Assembly: GCF_044324875.1 (NCBI RefSeq)
Contig: NZ_CP172185.1
Strand: one strand, 5' to 3'
From: Escherichia coli
GTDB taxonomy: Bacteria > Pseudomonadota > Gammaproteobacteria > Enterobacterales > Enterobacteriaceae
DNA length: 64,000 nucleotides
Of the stretch, positions 35,618 through 46,883 are shown piece by piece. The notes beneath the pieces were generated by a model. That model made no database searches. It was not told the origin of the DNA and was given only the letters and a program-made list of their open reading frames with translations. The stretch's first letter is position 1; each line of letters opens with the position of its first letter. A program made the translations under genes and the position numbers.

Positions 35618-36205
35618 TTACTTTTGGAAGGCTTTTTTTAAGCTGATTTTGGAAATCAGCTCTGTCAGTGAAAGGACCATTGTTGATCGCACAGCCTGTT
35701 GGTAACGCTGAATTTGCATTGCATACAAACTGGAGTCTGCAGGTTCAAACTGTGGCGGCGGTGGTAACGCCGCCACGCAATGCAGTTCACCAAAGGGTCC
35801 AAGGATTTCGTCGTCGGTAAACGCGTACTCGTTGCCGTCGTGATTTAGCTCTTCACGCAATGCCATCAGTAGCTCCGCATCTTCGTATTCCTGGCGGTTA
35901 ATGACGCCCAACCCGTAAATGAGTTTTAAACGCACAGAAAGATCGCCCAGCGGACCGTCGCCGTCGAGTAACGGTTCTACAGCATACTTCACCGCGTAAT
36001 CGTCTTTGCGGAATACCTGAAGCACCAGAAGATTTACCGCCTCGGTCAAAAGCTCGACGGCGGTGATCAGAAAGCTTCGCACGGTTTTGCCAGCATTCAG
36101 ACGCTCAAGCACACGGTTTTCAAAGGCCTGGGTTTGTTCCATTGTTGCCTGCATATCTGACAATCTGTTATTCGGGCGCAGGGTATCCTGCGCCTGGTCC
36201 ACCAT
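35618..36205 (-). CDS. mtlR: Mannitol operon repressor
   Basis: 195-aa protein immediately downstream of mtlD. Confidence 0.88.
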   Translation of the reverse strand: MVDQAQDTLRPNNRLSDMQATMEQTQAFENRVLERLNAGKTVRSFLITAVELLTEAVNLLVLQVFRKDDYAVKYAVEPLLDGDGPLGDLSVRLKLIYGLGVINRQEYEDAELLMALREELNHDGNEYAFTDDEILGPFGELHCVAALPPPPQFEPADSSLYAMQIQRYQQAVRSTMVLSLTELISKISLKKAFQK

Positions 36206-37353
36206 TATTGCATTGCTTTATAAGCGGTTACCGCCTCGGATACAACCTCGCTGTTGGCATCAAGACCGGAAATCTGTGCCAGCGCCGCCTGCGGACCTTT
36301 GTCAGCGATCAGTGCTGCCAGTTCCTGAGCCTGCGGATCATCTTCACTGCGGAAGTGCATTGCAGCGGCAATACCTTCAATCAGGTTTTTATGTGGCAGA
36401 CCATATTCCAGCGTTCCGAGCAGTGGCTTGATCAGACGGTCGCCAGCACTCAGTTTACGCAGCGGCTGACGGCCTACGCGCTCTACATCATCTTTCAGAT
36501 ACGGGTTCTCGAAACGACCGAGGATTTTCCGGATGTACGCCGCATGTTTGTCTGCGTCAAAGCCGTAGCGCTTGATCAATACTGCACCACTTTCTTCCAT
36601 CGCACCTTTTACCACCGCGCGGATTTTCTCGTCGAGAATAGCGTCACGAATGGTCTGATGACCGGCCAGTTTTCCGAGGTACGCGGTTATAGCATGACCC
36701 GTGTTCAGGGTGAAGAGTTTACGTTCGACAAATGCCATCAGGTTGTCGGTTAACTCCATGCCTGGAATGTTCGGCAACGCGCCTTTGAACTGGGTTTTAT
36801 CAACAATCCATTCGCTGAATGTTTCTACCGTCACTTCCAGCGGATCGTTGGTTGCAGAAGCCGAAGGCGGCACGATGCGGTCAACGGCGGAATCGACAAA
36901 GCCAACGTGTTCTTCTACCCACGCTTTGGCATCTTCCGGCAGGGCGTTCATTACATGGCCTTTCAGCTGCGTGGTGCCGCGTACCATGTTTTCACAGGCG
37001 ATGATGTTCAGCGGGGATTCATTACCTTGTTCTTTACGTTTCACCAGCCCTTTGGCGATTGCCGGGGCAATACGTTCCAGCACAACCGGACCAACGGCGG
37101 TAGTGACTAAATCAACCTGAGCAATCAGATCAACGACATCATCACCAATGCTGCTGACGGCATTGACGCCGGAAACGGTATCTACCTGCTCGGTTTCACC
37201 GACCACATGAACCTGATAGCTATGACGGGCATTCAGGGCATCAAGTACCACCTGATTGACATCGGCAAACGTCAGTTGGATACCCGCGTCTGCCAGCAGT
37301 TTACCGATAAAGCCACGACCGATATTACCTGCGCCAAAATGTAATGCTTTCAT
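36205..37353 (-). CDS. mtlD: Mannitol-1-phosphate 5-dehydrogenase
   Basis: ORF track 5'-overextended; true start [15 protein letters not shown] gives 382 aa. Confidence 0.93.
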
Positions 37354-37392
37354 AGTATTAACCTTCATCAATGTTTTTACCCGAGAGGGCTG

Positions 37393-37575
<183 letters not shown>

Positions 37576-37581
37576 ATTGGA

Positions 37582-39495
37582 TTACTTACGACCTGCCAGC
37601 AGTTCCAGCACTTCATCCACGCTGGTGGTGTGTGCCAGACGCTCGATGACAGACTCATCATCCAGTGCATTGGTCAGGCTGGTGATAACCTGAATGTGCT
37701 CGTTGTTACGGGCAGCAATACCAATCACCAGACGGGCAATGTCATCTTCTTCTTCACCGAAGCGCACGCCTTCCGGGTACTGGCAGAACACCACGCCCGT
37801 TTTCAGTACGCGATCTTTCGCTTCAACCGTACCGTGCGGTACCGCGATGGACTCACCCAGATAAGTCGGGGTCAGTTTTTCACGATCCAGCATCGCCTGA
37901 ACGTATTCCGGCTCAACGTAACCGCCTTTCACCAGCTGCTCGCCAGCAAAACGAATCGCTTCTTCTTTGGTGGCCGCTTTGCGACCGAGGAAGATGTTCT
38001 CCGCGCCCAGTTTGAACAGGTTAGCACTGGAATCGTCAAAGCTGTCTTTCAGACTGTCTTTCACTTTCACTTCGTTTTCAGTATGGCGCTGGGCAGCAAC
38101 CAGACGTTCGGTCAGGCTGGTGTACAGGCCGCTGTCGAGGAAGTTGGTCAGCGAAATATGCTGTGCCTGCGGAACCTGGCGCATAGCGCGTTCGGTCAGG
38201 TCACGGTGAGTGATGACCAGGTCCACATCTGGCGGCAGGTTGTTGATCGCGCTGTTAGTAACAGAAATCTGCGACAGACCTGCATCCTGAATTTTCTTAC
38301 GCAGCACACCTGCGCCCATCGCACTGGAACCCATACCGGCATCACAGGCAACGATGATTTTACGTACGTGGCTCAGGTCGTTAGTCACATCGCCCGCAGA
38401 CAGCGGGGACGCACCTTTAGACTCAGCTTTCATGTCCTGCATACGACGAGTTGCTGCTTCAATATCATCTTCTTCTTTCACTTTGCTGGTTTTCAGCAGA
38501 ATGGCAGAGACAACGAAGGAGACAGCCATCGCCGCACACACACCCGCGATGTTAGCGAAATAAGCACCTTTTGGTGTCATCGCCAGTACAGCAAGGATAG
38601 AACCCGGAGATGCCGGAGAAACCAGACCACCGCCCAGGATAGTCAGCGTGAACACGCCAGTCATACCACCGAGGATAACGGCCAGAATCAGACGCGGATT
38701 CATCAGCACATACGGGAAGTAGATTTCGTGGATACCGCCCAGGAAGTGGATGATTGCCGCACCGCCCGCAGACTGTTTAGCGCTACCACGACCAAAGAAC
38801 ATGTACGCCAGCAGCACGCCCATACCCGGACCTGGGTTAGCTTCAATCAGGAAGAAGATGGATTTACCCAGTTCATGGGACTGCTGAATGCCCAGCGGCG
38901 AGAAGATACCGTGGTTAATGGCGTTGTTGAGGAACAGGATTTTCGCCGGTTCAACAAAGATAGACGCCAGCGGCAGCATGTCATGGACAACCATGAAGTT
39001 AACGCCCGCAGCCAGCATTTTGGACAGGGCTTCAACAATCGGGCCAATGCCGAGGAATGCCAGAATAGCGAGGATCATCCCGATGATGCCTGCGGAGAAG
39101 TTATTCACCAGCATCTCAAAACCGGATTTGATCTTACCGTCTACCCAGCGGTCGAAGTGCTTAATGCACCAGCCACCCAGCGGACCTGCAATCATAGAAC
39201 CGAGGAACATCGGCATGTCTGCGCCGACGATAACGCCCATGGTGGTAATGGCACCGACTACGCCGCCACGTTCGCCGCCTACCAGCTTACCACCGGTATA
39301 ACCGATCAGCAGCGGCAGGAGATAAGTGATCATCGGCCCGACCAGCTTCGCCAGCGTTTCGTTCGGTAACCACCCTGTTGGAATAAATAACGCGGTGATG
39401 ATACCCCACGCGATAAACGCGCCGATATTTGGCATCACCATGTTGCTGAGGAAACGACCAAAGCTTTGCACTTTGATCTTAATATCGGATGACAT
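37582..39495 (-). CDS. mtlA: PTS mannitol-specific EIICBA component
   Basis: 637 aa MSSDIKIKVQSFGRFLSNMVMPNIG matching MtlA. Confidence 0.95.
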   Translation of the reverse strand: MSSDIKIKVQSFGRFLSNMVMPNIGAFIAWGIITALFIPTGWLPNETLAKLVGPMITYLLPLLIGYTGGKLVGGERGGVVGAITTMGVIVGADMPMFLGSMIAGPLGGWCIKHFDRWVDGKIKSGFEMLVNNFSAGIIGMILAILAFLGIGPIVEALSKMLAAGVNFMVVHDMLPLASIFVEPAKILFLNNAINHGIFSPLGIQQSHELGKSIFFLIEANPGPGMGVLLAYMFFGRGSAKQSAGGAAIIHFLGGIHEIYFPYVLMNPRLILAVILGGMTGVFTLTILGGGLVSPASPGSILAVLAMTPKGAYFANIAGVCAAMAVSFVVSAILLKTSKVKEEDDIEAATRRMQDMKAESKGASPLSAGDVTNDLSHVRKIIVACDAGMGSSAMGAGVLRKKIQDAGLSQISVTNSAINNLPPDVDLVITHRDLTERAMRQVPQAQHISLTNFLDSGLYTSLTERLVAAQRHTENEVKVKDSLKDSFDDSSANLFKLGAENIFLGRKAATKEEAIRFAGEQLVKGGYVEPEYVQAMLDREKLTPTYLGESIAVPHGTVEAKDRVLKTGVVFCQYPEGVRFGEEEDDIARLVIGIAARNNEHIQVITSLTNALDDESVIERLAHTTSVDEVLELLAGRK

Positions 39496-39638
39496 AAAAA
39501 CACCCCTTCTTATGTTTGCTGTCGCGCAGGCTGGAAGCCCGAGGTTTTTTGTTAATGTGGCGGCAGAGGTAGCCGGACCTTGTAGATACTGCGAAATCTG
39601 GCACTGAATCGGTTAACTGTCCAGTCGACGGCCTTTTG

Positions 39639-39654
39639 TGTGATATCGGTCACA
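39639..39654. promoter_or_regulatory. CRP binding site (perfect consensus half-sites) in mtlA promoter
   Basis: TGTGA-tatcgg-TCACA. Confidence 0.75.
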
Positions 39655-39755
39655 TAAATATAGGGGGTAGAGAGGTAATTGACGTGATGCTCATCACAAA
39701 ACTATTGTGTAAAAAAGCAACAAGGCGGCGATTTTCGCTAAAAATGGCATTTAAA

Positions 39756-39771
39756 TGTGAGTAATGTCACA
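39756..39771. promoter_or_regulatory. CRP binding site (perfect consensus half-sites) in mtlA promoter
   Basis: TGTGA-gtaatg-TCACA. Confidence 0.75.
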
Positions 39772-39799
39772 TTTTTGTTTTGTTGGTTTGTTGAATCTT

Positions 39800-39815
39800 T
39801 GTGATCTGAATCACA
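39800..39815. promoter_or_regulatory. CRP binding site (perfect consensus half-sites) in mtlA promoter
   Basis: TGTGA-tctgaa-TCACA. Confidence 0.75.
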
Positions 39816-40031
39816 AGATATTTTCTTACGGCGTTCACCTGATGTGATCTACAGCATGTTATGCCCTCGTCATAAAATCGTTATGTAACTAAGCAACTCA
39901 TCACCTCTAAAAATTATTCTTTGGTGTTATGGCGAGAATCGCGAACCCGAATTATTGTCAAAATATCAGCCTGACTCCCTTCTGGCTGCCAGCCAAAAAA
40001 CAACACTGATAAACGTGAATCCGAGGCAGAT

Positions 40032-40394
40032 ATGTTTCTAAACTATTTCGCGTTGGGAGTGCTGATCTTCGTCTTTCTGGTGATTTTTTATGGAATCATC
40101 GCGATACATGACATCCCTTATCTGATTGCCAAAAAGCGCAACCACCCCCATGCCGACGCTATTCATACAGCGGGCTGGGTGAGCCTGTTTACTCTGCATG
40201 TTATCTGGCCGTTTCTGTGGATCTGGGCGACGCTCTATCAACCGGAGCGCGGCTGGGGCATGCAGTCACATGTTGCGTCGCAAGAGAAAGCGACTGACCC
40301 GGAAATCGCCGCACTTTCTGACCGAATTTCCCGGCTGGAGCACCAACTCGCCGCCGAGAAAAAGACTGACTATTCCACGTTCCCGGAGATCTAA
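40032..40394 (+). CDS. yibI: DUF3302-family small inner-membrane protein
   Basis: 120 aa with two predicted TM segments; N-terminal ~78 aa near-identical to the yiaW product in this window. Confidence 0.8.
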
Positions 40395-40396
40395 AT

Positions 40397-41533
40397 ATGG
40401 ATCTATTGATTGTTTTAACTTACGTGGCGCTGGCGTGGGCGGTCTTTAAAATCTTCCGCATTCCGGTGAATCAGTGGACGCTGGCGACGGCGGCGCTGGG
40501 AGGCGTGTTTCTGGTGAGTGGTTTGATTTTGTTGATGAACTACAACCACCCTTACACTTTTACCGCGCAAAAGGCAGTGATAGCGATCCCCATCACGCCA
40601 CAGGTGACGGGAATTGTTACTGAAGTCACCGACAAAAATAATCAGCTTATTCAGAAGGGCGAGGTGCTTTTTAAGCTCGACCCGGTTCGTTACCAGGCGC
40701 GAGTTGACAGACTTCAGGCTGACCTGATGACGGCGACGCATAATATAAAGACGCTGCGCGCGCAGCTCACTGAAGCGCAGGCCAACACCACCCAGGTTTC
40801 AGCGGAGCGCGACCGTCTGTTTAAAAATTATCAACGTTACCTGAAAGGCAGCCAGGCGGCGGTGAATCCGTTCTCGGAACGTGACATCGACGATGCGCGG
40901 CAAAACTTCCTCGCGCAGGACGCGCTGGTGAAAGGCTCGGTGGCGGAGCAGGCGCAGATCCAGAGCCAGCTCGACAGTATGGTTAACGGCGAGCAATCGC
41001 AGATTGTGAGCTTAAGAGCGCAACTTACTGAAGCAAAATATAACCTTGAGCAGACTGTCATTCGCGCACCAAGCAATGGCTACGTTACTCAGGTACTGAT
41101 CCGCCCAGGTACATACGCAGCTGCCTTGCCGCTACGTCCGGTGATGGTTTTCATCCCCGAGCAAAAACGGCAAATTGTCGCCCAATTTCGGCAGAACTCG
41201 CTGTTACGTCTGAAACCCGGCGATGATGCGGAAGTGGTGTTTAACGCGCTACCTGGGCAGGTGTTCCACGGCAAACTGACCAGTATTTTACCTGTCGTGC
41301 CAGGCGGTTCGTATCAGGCGCAAGGGGTATTGCAATCATTAACGGTCGTGCCCGGCACGGACGGTGTGCTGGGAACCATTGAACTGGACCCCAACGATGA
41401 TATCGATGCCTTACCCGACGGCATCTACGCCCAGGTGGCGGTTTACTCCGACCATTTCAGCCATGTTTCGGTGATGCGAAAAGTGCTGCTAAGAATGACC
41501 AGCTGGATGCATTATCTTTATTTGGATCATTGA
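40397..41533 (+). CDS. yibH: HlyD-family membrane-fusion-like protein
   Basis: 378 aa; N-terminal TM anchor, coiled coil, beta-barrel-like C-terminus; paralogue of the yiaV product. Confidence 0.8.
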
Positions 41534-41603
41534 GACTTATATCACCTGTGTTTTGCGTGAGCCTGAGCCATACTGATATTTTTCCTCGCACAAAGGACTC
41601 GGC

Positions 41604-42212
41604 ATGAAACTCGTCGGTAGCTACACCAGCCCGTTTGTACGCAAACTTTCTATTCTGTTGTTAGAAAAGGGCATAACTTTCGAATTTATTAATGAACTGC
41701 CCTATAACGCGGACAACGGCGTGGCGCAATTTAACCCGTTAGGGAAAGTGCCGGTGCTGGTGACCGAAGAGGGCGAATGCTGGTTTGATTCGCCGATCAT
41801 CGCTGAATATATTGAATTAATGAATGTCGCTCCGGCGATGTTGCCGCGCGATCCGCTGGAGTCGTTGCGGGTGCGCAAAATTGAGGCACTGGCGGATGGC
41901 ATTATGGATGCCGGGCTGGTATCGGTGCGTGAACAGGCGCGTCCAGCGGCGCAGCAGTCTGAAGATGAATTGTTACGCCAGCGGGAGAAAATCAACCGCA
42001 GTCTGGATGTGCTGGAAGGATATCTGGTCGATGGCACACTCAAAACCGATACGGTCAATCTGGCGACTATCGCCATTGCCTGTGCCGTCGGATATCTCAA
42101 TTTCCGCCGCGTTGCGCCAGGTTGGTGTGTCGACCGCCCACACTTAGTCAAACTGGTCGAAAACCTGTTTAGCCGCGAAAGTTTTGCTCGCACCGAACCG
42201 CCAAAGGCTTGA
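41604..42212 (+). CDS. yibF: Glutathione S-transferase family protein
   Basis: 202 aa with GST N- and C-domain character. Confidence 0.85.
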
Positions 42213-42309
42213 TGCGCGATATGTCCTCCTGACCCATCTCACGTTACAATCCGTGGTTATGTTAAACGCCCTTCTCCGTGTGAGAGGGCCTTGATCAGCC
42301 AGGTTTCCT

Positions 42310-43701
42310 ATGACAACCGAAACGCGTTTCCTCTATAGTCAACTTCCGGCTATTGATCGCTTATTGCGCGATAGCTCCTTCCTTTCTTTGCGTGATACTT
42401 ATGGTCACACCCGCGTGGTGGAATTGCTGCGTCAGATGCTTGACGAAGCGCGAGAAGTGATTCGTGACAGCCAGACGCTGCCCGCATGGTGTGAAAACTG
42501 GGCGCAAGAAGTCGATGCCCGACTGACGAAGGAGGCGCAGAGCGCGCTGCGTCCGGTGATCAACCTGACGGGAACCGTGCTGCATACCAACCTTGGTCGA
42601 GCTTTACAGGCGGAAGCCGCGGTGGAAGCCGTTGCGCAGGCTATGCGTTCGCCAGTGACCCTCGAGTACGATCTGGACGACGCCGGACGCGGACATCGCG
42701 ATCGGGCGCTGGCGCAGCTGCTGTGCCGTATTACGGGGGCGGAAGATGCCTGTATCGTTAATAACAATGCGGCGGCGGTGTTATTGATGTTGGCGGCCAC
42801 TGCTAGCGGGAAAGAGGTGGTGGTATCTCGCGGCGAACTGGTGGAGATTGGCGGCGCGTTTCGTATTCCTGATGTCATGCGTCAGGCAGGCTGCACCCTA
42901 CACGAAGTAGGGACCACCAACCGCACGCACGCGAATGATTATCGTCAGGCGGTGAATGAAAATACCGCACTGTTGATGAAAGTACATACCAGTAACTACA
43001 GCATTCAGGGGTTCACCAAAGCGATAGACGAAGCTGAACTGGTGGCGCTTGGCAAAGAACTGGATATTCCCGTGGTGACTGATTTAGGCAGTGGCTCGCT
43101 GGTCGATCTTAGCCAGTACGGTTTGCCGAAAGAGCCAATGCCGCAGGAGTTGATTGCGGCGGGCGTCAGTCTGGTGAGTTTCTCCGGCGACAAGTTGTTA
43201 GGCGGGCCGCAGGCAGGGATTATCGTTGGTAAAAAAGAGATGATCGCCCGCCTGCAAAGCCACCCGCTGAAGCGTGCATTACGCGCGGATAAAATGACCC
43301 TCGCGGCGCTGGAAGCCACGTTGCGTCTTTATTTACACCCTGAAGCTCTGAGTGAAAAATTACCGACCCTGCGCCTGCTTACCCGCAGCGCAGAGGTCAT
43401 TCAAATCCAGGCACAACGTTTACAGGCTCCCCTTGCCGCACATTACGGCGCGGAGTTTGCGGTACAGGTTATGCCATGTCTTTCGCAGATTGGCAGTGGT
43501 TCGCTGCCGGTTGATCGCCTGCCGAGCGCGGCATTAACGTTTACACCCCATGATGGACGCGGTAGCCACCTTGAGTCATTAGCCGCCCGCTGGCGTGAAT
43601 TGCCAGTGCCGGTGATTGGTCGTATTTATGACGGACGATTGTGGCTGGATTTACGCTGCCTTGAAGATGAGCAACGGTTTTTGGAGATGTTGTTGAAATG
43701 A
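42310..43701 (+). CDS. selA: L-seryl-tRNA(Sec) selenium transferase
   Basis: 463-aa sequence matching SelA. Confidence 0.95.
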
Positions 43702-45542
43702 TTATTGCGACTGCCGGACACGTTGACCACGGCAAAACAACCTTATTGCAGGCGATTACTGGCGTAAATGCCGATCGTCTGCCGGAAGAAAAAAAGCGCG
43801 GCATGACCATCGATCTCGGCTATGCCTACTGGCCGCAGCCGGATGGTCGCGTGCCTGGTTTTATCGACGTACCCGGTCATGAAAAGTTTCTTTCCAACAT
43901 GCTGGCGGGCGTTGGTGGTATCGATCACGCGCTGTTGGTGGTGGCGTGCGATGACGGCGTGATGGCTCAGACTCGTGAGCATCTGGCGATTTTGCAGCTG
44001 ACCGGTAACCCGATGCTGACAGTGGCGCTGACCAAAGCCGATCGCGTGGACGAAGCGCGTGTTGATGAGGTTGAACGCCAGGTAAAGGAGGTGCTGCGGG
44101 AATACGGTTTTGCTGAGGCAAAACTGTTTATCACCGCAGCAACCGAAGGTCGGGGAATTGATGCCCTGCGCGAGCATTTGCTTCAGTTACCAGAACGTGA
44201 ACACGCCAGCCAACATAGTTTCCGCCTCGCGATCGACCGTGCATTTACCGTAAAAGGTGCCGGGCTGGTCGTCACCGGTACGGCGTTAAGCGGGGAAGTG
44301 AAGGTAGGCGATTCACTCTGGCTGACTGGTGTAAATAAACCGATGCGTGTACGTGCGCTGCATGCACAAAACCAGCCAACAGAAACCGCCCATGCCGGGC
44401 AGCGTATCGCGCTTAACATCGCGGGTGATGCGGAAAAAGAGCAGATTAACCGTGGCGACTGGCTGCTTACCGATGCGCCGCCGGAGCCGTTCACACGGGT
44501 GATTGTCGAGCTTCAAACCCATACACCGCTGAACCAGTGGCAGCCGCTGCATATTCACCACGCCGCCAGCCACGTCACGGGACGCGTTTCGCTGCTTGAA
44601 GATAACCTTGCCGAGCTGGTGTTCGACACGCCGCTATGGCTGGCGGATAACGATCGCCTGGTGCTGCGCGATATCTCGGCCCGCAACACGCTGGCGGGGG
44701 CGCGTGTGGTGATGCTTAACCCGCCGCGTCGCGGTAAGCGTAAGCCGGAATATCTGCAATGGCTGGCGTCTCTTGCACGGGTGCAGAGTGATGCCGATGC
44801 GTTATCTGTTCATCTGGAACGCGGAGCGGTTAACCTTGCAGATTTCGCCTGGGCACGGCAGCTCAACGGCGAAGGGATGCGCGAACTGCTGCAACAGCCT
44901 GGTTATATTCAGGCTGGTTATAGCTTGTTGAATGCGCCGGTTGCCGCCCGCTGGCAGCGGAAAATTCTCGACACATTAGCGACTTATCATGAGCAACATC
45001 GCGATGAACCTGGTCCTGGGCGAGAACGTCTGCGACGTATGGCGTTGCCAATGGAAGATGAAGCGCTGGTACTGTTGCTGATTGAAAAGATGCGCGAAAG
45101 CGGCGACATCCTCAGTCATCACGGTTGGCTGCATCTGCCGGATCATAAAGCGGGCTTCAGCGAAGAGCAGCAGGCCATCTGGCAAAAAGCAGAGCCGCTG
45201 TTTGGTGACGAGCCGTGGTGGGTGCGTGATCTGGCAAAAGAGACGGGAACCGACGAGCAGGCAATGCGCCTGACGCTACGCCAGGCGGCGCAGCAAGGAA
45301 TTATTACCGCGATCGTTAAAGATCGTTATTACCGTAACGATCGGATTGTCGAGTTTGCCAATATGATCCGCGATCTCGATCAGGAGTGTGGTTCAACCTG
45401 CGCGGCGGATTTCCGCGATCGCTTAGGTGTTGGTCGAAAACTGGCAATTCAAATTCTGGAATATTTTGACCGCATTGGCTTTACGCGTCGTCGTGGAAAT
45501 GATCATTTATTGCGCGACGCATTATTATTTCCGGAAAAATAA
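43698..45542 (+). CDS. selB: Selenocysteine-specific translation elongation factor
   Basis: 614 aa with GTPase motifs [11 protein letters not shown] and DVPGHE; overlaps selA stop. Confidence 0.95.
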
Positions 45543-45595
45543 GGAAATGATTAATTAAGTTTTAAAATAAATTAATACAAAATTCTTATGAATTT

Positions 45596-45634
45596 AAAAA
45601 AAGCACATTGTTTAATGAATACAATGTGCTTTTT
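45596..45634 (+). terminator. Intrinsic terminator after selAB
   Basis: A-run, stem agcacattg/caatgtgct, T-run. Confidence 0.8.
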
Positions 45635-45731
45635 ATTAGATTAATTTTGATAATCAATAATACTGATCATATTTTTGAATGAAAATCCTCAGTAAGCTGC
45701 CCGCCCTTTTTTACACTTTCAGGAGTGTGTT

Positions 45732-46883
45732 ATGGCAGCTTCAACCTTTTTTATTCCTGCCGTGAATGTTATTGGTGCTGATTCATTGAATGATGCAATG
45801 AATATGATGGCAGATTATGGATTTACCCGTACCTTAATTGTCACTGACAATATGTTAACGAAATTGGGTATGGCGGGTGATGTGCAAAAAGCACTGGAAG
45901 AACGCAATATTTTTAGCGTTATTTATGATGGCACCCAACCTAACCCCACCACGGAAAACGTCGCTGCAGGTTTGAAATTACTTAAAGAAAATAATTGCGA
46001 TAGCGTGATTTCCTTAGGCGGTGGTTCTCCACACGACTGCGCAAAAGGTATTGCGCTGGTGGCAGCCAATGGTGGCGATATTCGCGATTACGAAGGCGTT
46101 GACCGCTCTGCAAAACCGCAGCTGCCGATGATCGCCATCAATACCACGGCGGGTACGGCCTCTGAAATGACCCGTTTCTGCATCATCACTGACGAAGCGC
46201 GTCATATCAAAATGGCGATTGTTGATAAACATGTAACTCCGTTGCTTTCTGTCAATGACTCCTCGCTGATGATCGGTATGCCGAAGTCACTGACCGCCGC
46301 AACGGGTATGGATGCCTTAACACACGCTATCGAAGCGTATGTCTCTATCGCTGCAACGCCGATCACTGACGCTTGCGCACTGAAAGCGGTGACCATGATT
46401 GCCGAAAACCTGCCGTTAGCCGTTGAAGATGGCAGCAATGCTAAAGCGCGTGAAGCAATGGCTTATGCCCAGTTCCTCGCTGGTATGGCGTTCAACAACG
46501 CATCTCTTGGTTATGTTCATGCGATGGCGCACCAACTGGGCGGTTTCTACAACCTGCCACACGGTGTATGTAATGCTGTTCTGCTGCCACACGTTCAGGT
46601 GTTCAACAGCAAAGTCGCTGCTGCGCGTCTGCGTGACTGTGCTGCTGCCATGGGCGTTAACGTGACAGGCAAAAATGACGCGGAAGGCGCAGAAGCGTGC
46701 ATCAATGCCATCCGTGAACTGGCGAAGAAAGTGAATATCCCGGCAGGCCTGCGTGACCTGAACGTGAAAGAAGAGGATTTCGCGGTACTGGCCACCAATG
46801 CCCTGAAAGATGCGTGTGGGTTTACTAACCCGATTCAGGCAACTCACGAAGAGATTGTGGCAATTTATCGCGCTGCGATGTAA
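45732..46883 (+). CDS. yiaY: Iron-containing alcohol dehydrogenase
   Basis: 383-aa Fe-ADH family sequence matching YiaY. Confidence 0.9.

Follow-up and report, generated by a model that had tools for sequence, protein, structure and literature searches.

An unoccupied form of the RhsA locus, probably the ancestral yibH-yibF spacer, in a 64-kb stretch of Escherichia coli DNA

The RhsA element is a polymorphic-toxin/T6SS-effector island, present in K-12 and in about 69% of complete E. coli genomes. An Rhs-less state of the RhsA locus was reportedly found in ECOR strains by C. W. Hill's group in the 1990s, and the original descriptions from that group (Feulner and co-workers in 1990, Hill and co-workers in 1995, Wang and co-workers in 1998) are said to have compared RhsA-plus and RhsA-less strains at the sequence level. 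All numbers given here come from our own alignments and not from these older papers. The Rhs position between yibF and yibH is locus 10 of Jackson et al. 2009 (PMC2935791), where it is described as lacking in some E. coli strains and in E. albertii. According to the same study, one group of pathogenic strains is without the clade I expansion, loci 3, 10 and 11 were inferred to postdate the split from that group, and E. albertii has complete Rhs genes at loci 1 and 5 only, plus a relic at locus 6. The presence/absence polymorphism of RhsA and its direction are already published, and the finding described here is an ordinary and already known one. The window, that is, the whole 64-kb stretch of E. 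coli DNA that was analysed, resembles the Rhs-less pathogenic group and E. albertii of Jackson et al. 2009 (PMC2935791) in having yibH and yibF adjacent with no Rhs gene.

Junction states were counted in 5,426 complete E. coli genomes. A continuous (empty) yibH-yibF junction occurs in 1,523 of the 5,426 (28%), and a fimbrial/S6-peptidase island sits at the same nucleotide in 143 (2.6%). The K-12-type junctions are found in 3,732 genomes on the rhs-yibF side (about 69%) and in 3,723 on the yibH-island side; both ends of the RhsA-type island are uniform across these genomes, which is consistent with a single origin. In at least one genome, RMDEC465, the RhsA frame encloses a VgrG effector island. 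K-12, O157:H7, O55:H7, O104:H4 and O111:H8 are among the strains with the Rhs frame. The empty junction is carried by S88 and NRG 857C, among others, and the K-12-type rhs-yibF junction is absent from UPEC 536; we take all three to be phylogroup B2 strains. The junction region of the window differs by about 2% from that of the classic B2 empty-site strains, and the genomes closest to the window include O102:H6 strains. The 64-kb window contains none of the Clermont phylogroup markers.

Anatomy of the yibH-yibF junction

The gene order in the window is that of K-12, read in reverse, and the neighbours of the gap are ordinary core genes. The names yibH and yibF are those that RefSeq gives to the two genes in E. 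coli 50579417, where this stretch is 100% identical. The features are as follows.

Minus strand, preceding yibI: mtlD and mtlA, from the ORF list
40032-40394, plus strand: yibI (DUF3302 protein), first of the yibI-yibH pair; ORF, 100% identical to the annotated yibI of E. coli 50579417
40397-41533, plus strand: yibH (HlyD-family membrane protein), 378 aa, with the stop codon TGA at 41531-41533; ORF and annotation of the identical stretch
41534-41603, no strand: yibH-yibF intergenic gap, 70 bp, read here as the unoccupied form of the RhsA locus
41534-41535, no strand: point of island insertion in other strains, directly after TGAG, from the junction sequences
41535-41566, plus strand: 32 bp (ACTTATATCACCTGTGTTTTGCGTGAGCCTGA) without a collinear match in the occupied allele of K-12 type, from the K-12 alignment
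41567-41603, plus strand: 37 bp 5' of yibF, common to K-12 and all RhsA-bearing genomes, from identity with K-12
41569-41574, plus strand: CATACT box within the 37 bp, from a multiple alignment of spacers (alignment A1)
41593-41597, plus strand: ribosome-binding site AAGGA within the 37 bp
41604-42212, plus strand: yibF (glutathione S-transferase-like protein), 202 aa, with its ATG at 41604; ORF and annotation of the identical stretch
Plus strand, after yibF: selA, selB and yiaY, from the ORF list

The two genes that flank the gap are adjacent, in the same orientation and on one continuous stretch, and have 98.15% (yibH) and 99.84% (yibF) nucleotide identity to their K-12 counterparts. The original prediction placed about 70 bp between them, and the ORF list and the sequence give exactly this figure. 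It also placed the RhsA element between these genes in K-12. The MG1655 record agrees, listing rhsA, yibA, yibJ, yibG, yibS, yibW, yibV and yibU between yibF and yibH.

Positions 41300-41800 of the window were aligned with the K-12 region. Window 41300-41534 aligns to the yibH side of K-12 and 41567-41800 to the yibF side, and K-12 is identical to the window over the final 37 bp ahead of yibF. Between the aligned flanks there are 8,249 bp in K-12 and 32 bp (41535-41566) in the window. The window thus has the chromosomal locus of the K-12 RhsA element (locus 10), its flanks yibH and yibF, the 37 bp 5' of yibF and the yibH stop, whereas the element itself is absent entirely and its place is taken by the 32 bp of ancestral spacer. 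This contrast at the junction is a structural difference, to which no chance test is applicable.

Searches for Rhs-related sequence were negative. RhsA, YibA, YibJ, YibG, YibS, YibW, YibV and YibU had no match by tblastn in the 64-kb window, the lone exception being a 17-aa chance match (E = 0.77), and blastn of the 8,249-bp K-12 element against the whole 64-kb window returned nothing at E <= 0.01. Neither the yibH-side island end (GGGGGAGGGGGGAGATTATGG...) nor the yibF-side end (...CCCATCACCAG) is present in 41534-41603, and a search of the window found no integrase, attachment site or island-end sequence. The locus has no Rhs core ORF with YD repeats, no core extension and no downstream immunity or orphan-tip genes. 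An alignment of 41400-41700 to both K-12 junctions, the check proposed with the original prediction, contained nothing Rhs-related in that interval. With rhsA at the predicted K-12 position and no Rhs remnants in the 70-bp gap, the prediction of a direct junction holds.

Orthology and structure of the spacer

The yibH-yibF spacer was surveyed in one genome per species. A degenerate pattern for the YibF N-terminus gave 120 loci, which were mapped by tblastn with YibI, YibH, YibF, SelA, MtlA and RhsA. The direct order yibI-yibH-yibF-selA is found in about 30 species, from Citrobacter, Kluyvera, Enterobacter, Leclercia, Lelliottia, Raoultella, Klebsiella, Atlantibacter, Silvania and others, with a yibH-yibF gap of 61-114 bp and, in one species, of 381 bp. 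A gap of exactly 70 bp was measured in C. werkmanii, in Citrobacter sp. FP75 and in two divergent lineages labelled E. coli. Across these genes, one of the E. coli lineages (L028) is roughly 89-96% identical to the window and the other (L048) 91-98%, and their gaps differ from that of the window at 3 and 4 positions, respectively (hand count). The 381-bp spacer belongs to Raoultella ornithinolytica (L072 3525-3905), in which about 290 bp with long inverted ends, resembling a MITE-like repeat, are inserted just after the CATACT box.

In alignment A1, which holds 13 sequences, the window gap is collinear with the gaps of its relatives over the full length, and the whole of it aligns with the yibH-yibF gap of Citrobacter, Leclercia, Enterobacter asburiae and Raoultella. 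The 32 bp are 20/32 identical to Citrobacter werkmanii with no gaps (hand count from A1), and are the orthologue of the loop, 3' arm and T-run of the relatives' yibH terminator hairpin together with the bases before CATACT. Because other genera have orthologous sequence between these genes, the 32 bp are old spacer and not an Rhs remnant, and the spacer as a whole is orthologous to the insert-free spacers of the outgroups. The other Enterobacteriaceae compared (Citrobacter, Kluyvera, Enterobacter, Leclercia, Raoultella and further genera) resemble the window in gene order, in the full-length alignment of the spacer, in the CATACT box and in the ribosome-binding site. They differ in two respects. 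Most genera have a complete yibH terminator hairpin, whereas Escherichia and some Citrobacter forms are without 21 nt that cover its 5' arm, and the yibH stop codon is TGA in Escherichia and some Citrobacter forms but TAA or TAG in other genera.

The longer spacer forms have a GC-rich hairpin followed by a T-run directly 3' of yibH. Their folded gaps reach -30.2 kcal/mol (z -5.1) in Citrobacter sp. Awk 4 (L063), -19.7 kcal/mol (z -2.8) in a Leclercia sp. (L080) and -21.5 kcal/mol (z -4.1) in Raoultella planticola (L069). The window gap folds at -9.3 kcal/mol and has no structure beyond that of shuffled sequences (z -0.14), which rules it out as a working terminator. The absence of these 21 nt can be seen in A1 by comparing window 41531-41566 with L063, L080, L085 and L069. 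The yibH hairpin is dead in E. coli, so yibH transcripts may run through into yibF.

A scan of 41300-41750 for consensus promoters and terminators called neither. The CATACT box is invariant in 13/13 aligned spacers from six genera (A1 columns C39-T44), and this invariance is what makes it a candidate for the -10 element of a yibF promoter. Every island boundary examined ends just upstream of CATACT.

One candidate for an Rhs-associated match in the gap was set aside. The 10-mer TTATATCACC of the gap is also present in the region upstream of rhsA in K-12, 79 bp before the junction. Without the next 48 bp, K-12 reads TTATATCACC-TGCCCTTTTT, similar to the 3' arm and T-run of the ancestral hairpin, and the 10-mer in K-12 is probably retained ancestral spacer and not a sign of Rhs DNA in the window. 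On the reverse strand of the K-12 region (L001), about 117 to 30 bp before the yibF ATG, the order is TTATATCACC, 48 bp and TGCCCTTTTTCC, and dropping the 48 bp between the two restores the ancestral hairpin 3' arm and T-run. The yibF-side edge of the RhsA island may accordingly lie deeper than the alignment breakpoint by about 79 bp, the 48 bp being a separate insertion.

Other islands at the yibF/yibH site

The K-12-type RhsA element, the fimbrial/S6-peptidase island and the VgrG island all have the same yibH-side start, after TGAG. Within the fimbrial/S6-peptidase island (about 10.4 kb; E. coli SCU-204, L003 4635-15000) lie a fimbrial chaperone-usher operon, an HTH gene and the gene for an S6-family (SPATE-type) peptidase of 1,226 aa. 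The first 12 or so bases of the island are like those of the RhsA frame (GGGGGA[G/A]GGGG, by eye); apart from this G-rich start, comparison of the island with the K-12 RhsA element gave chance-level matches only. The yibF-side flank of the fimbrial island is a diverged copy of the window spacer (about 79% identity), and its yibF coding sequence is 99% identical, suggesting that the island was imported with its flanks from a diverged donor.

The RMDEC465 island measures 16.7 kb between yibF and yibH (L127 667-17398; L125). Besides two VgrG genes, a Vgr pseudogene and ISAs1 fragments, it has genes for an N-acetylmuramidase, a GH19 protein, an M35 metallopeptidase and an S-type pyocin-domain protein, the last accompanied by an immunity gene. 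Its ends are those of the RhsA element, with the same left end and the same yibF-side end of about 175 bp, and they appear to indicate cassette exchange within one island frame. In strain Ch1, a close relative of the window haplotype, the element at the RhsA site is shorter (about 6.1 kb), has another tip and includes an Imm57 immunity gene. Ends that stay fixed around a variable interior fit a single origin of the frame and later cassette exchange.

Rhs genes also lie at the yibF/yibH site in two Citrobacter genomes, C. youngae ATCC 29220 (L026 6326-10432) and Citrobacter sp. Res13 (L044 2515-8118), and are 67-68% identical to RhsA in amino acids. The locus is therefore an Rhs site outside E. 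coli too. Another C. youngae strain (L029) has an empty junction.

E. albertii is not truly empty at this site, unlike the window, since it has a MOSC-domain-like gene 5' of yibF. In E. albertii NBRC 107761 (L007 134-780) this is an ORF of about 215 aa directly 5' of yibF, assigned by eye to the MOSC-domain (YiiM-like) type; the view is of the yibF side, with the contig end 838 bp upstream. The E. albertii spacer (...GCTGCTTTTTTTCACCGCCAG, then GCCATACT) is closer to the RhsA-side flank of K-12 than to that of the window. The K-12-type yibF-side flank (TGCCCTTTTTCCCATCACCAG) looks like a diverged ancestral spacer, nearer to the E. albertii flank than to the window's.

The recurrence of cargo at this spot (Rhs islands in E. 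coli and Citrobacter, the VgrG-effector island, the fimbrial and S6-peptidase island, and the MOSC-like gene of E. albertii) raises the idea that the position after the yibH stop, where the 5' arm of the old terminator lay, is a preferred landing or exchange site for unrelated cargo across genera. We regard this idea as speculative and rather unlikely. Selection for the sole permissive position in a short spacer accounts for the recurrence equally well.

History of the window's allele

By its pattern of identities, the stretch around the locus is a recombination mosaic (window 36205-46883). From the mtlA-yibI spacer through yibF, the window is 99.8-100% identical to strain 50579417, with yibI, yibH and yibF at 100%, and in selA, selB and yiaY it is 97-98.5% identical to that strain, the best among the compared genomes being 97.5-98.7%. 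On the other side, mtlD is 99.91% identical to that of the RhsA-bearing strain Ch1. The mtlA-mtlD spacer of the window is long (228 bp) and K-12-like, compared with 94 bp in the empty-site relatives WCHEC000837 and 50579417; this long spacer, like mtlD, resembles Ch1. Over 24 kb, empty and RhsA-bearing strains are both found among the closest genomes, and the 24-kb stretch 30000-54000 had no overall match above 98.8% among complete genomes.

The best reading of the 70-bp gap is that it is the ancestral, never-interrupted yibH-yibF spacer, an unoccupied allele of the RhsA locus, and we put the probability of this at about 0.9. The original prediction had left the choice between an unoccupied site and a cleanly excised one, and it is the former that the orthology of the 32 bp with the spacer of other genera favours. 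Under the latter, an ancestor with the RhsA element would have lost it precisely by excision or deletion, leaving the 70-bp gap. The gap is indeed short and tidy, and Rhs elements are long repeats that serve as substrates for recA-dependent rearrangement (PMC2935791). However, the K-12-type allele has no collinear copy of the 32 bp, so that a deletion cannot regenerate them, and their match to the intergenic sequence of other genera marks the site as unoccupied and ancestral rather than as the product of an excision. The sole repeat at the two K-12 junctions, read from the junction sequences by eye, is the trinucleotide AGG, and a deletion between its copies would leave a gap of about 38 bp, not 70. 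There is no other direct repeat at the K-12 junctions and no island sequence in the gap that could be taken for an excision scar, and the lack of an integrase, attachment site or island end in the window also counts against a precise loss, which we judge highly improbable. Short-read assemblies break or collapse at Rhs cores, which are multi-copy repeats, and a repeated Rhs element might in principle have been collapsed out of this assembly. But the same continuous junction occurs in 1,523 complete genomes, and instead of the two K-12 flanks joined together it holds unique ancestral sequence, so the chance of such an artefact is negligible.

As a counterpoint to a site that was never occupied, a mosaic lineage such as this one might once have had RhsA and regained the ancestral empty allele from an empty-site donor, through homologous recombination within yibH and yibF. 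The abrupt changes in identity along the region agree with such a replacement, yibI, yibH and yibF being 100% identical to 50579417 and their neighbours 1.5-3% diverged, as do the resemblance of mtlD and the long mtlA-mtlD spacer to Ch1 and the mixture of empty and RhsA-bearing strains among the closest 24-kb relatives. Mosaicism is normal in E. coli, however, and shows merely that recombination occurs here; no evidence requires a former occupied state, and the allele would still be of the ancestral empty type. A replacement of this kind seems improbable, if less so than an excision. A further counterpoint comes from the Citrobacter Rhs genes at the same site, from which occupation of the locus may predate E. 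coli.

For the ancestral, unoccupied spacer, we infer that the direction of change was insertion and not loss, and that the island frame had a single origin. In one Escherichia lineage, an island with fixed ends would have inserted immediately behind the yibH stop codon, and later exchange of the island interior would have given different Rhs tips or VgrG effectors. Lineages like that of the window would have retained the original spacer, or would carry it again via ordinary homologous recombination. No mechanism acts at the site itself, the gap being free of a scar, an attachment site or residual island DNA.

E. coli strains have long been known to differ in whether they carry RhsA, and the present case matters little. 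The direct sequence evidence settles the question of unoccupied versus excised, and the frequencies are updated to 28% empty, 69% with an Rhs-type frame and 2.6% with the fimbrial/S6-peptidase island. If the site were a hotspot after all, this could point to targeted or hairpin-directed integration, or to serial cassette replacement inside one ancient insertion, as opposed to independent random insertions filtered by selection, and the window would represent the naive target. The sole meaning for the biology of the strain is that it is without the RhsA toxin/immunity set, and the several different islands at one nucleotide may be of interest for work on T6SS effector islands and integration hotspots.
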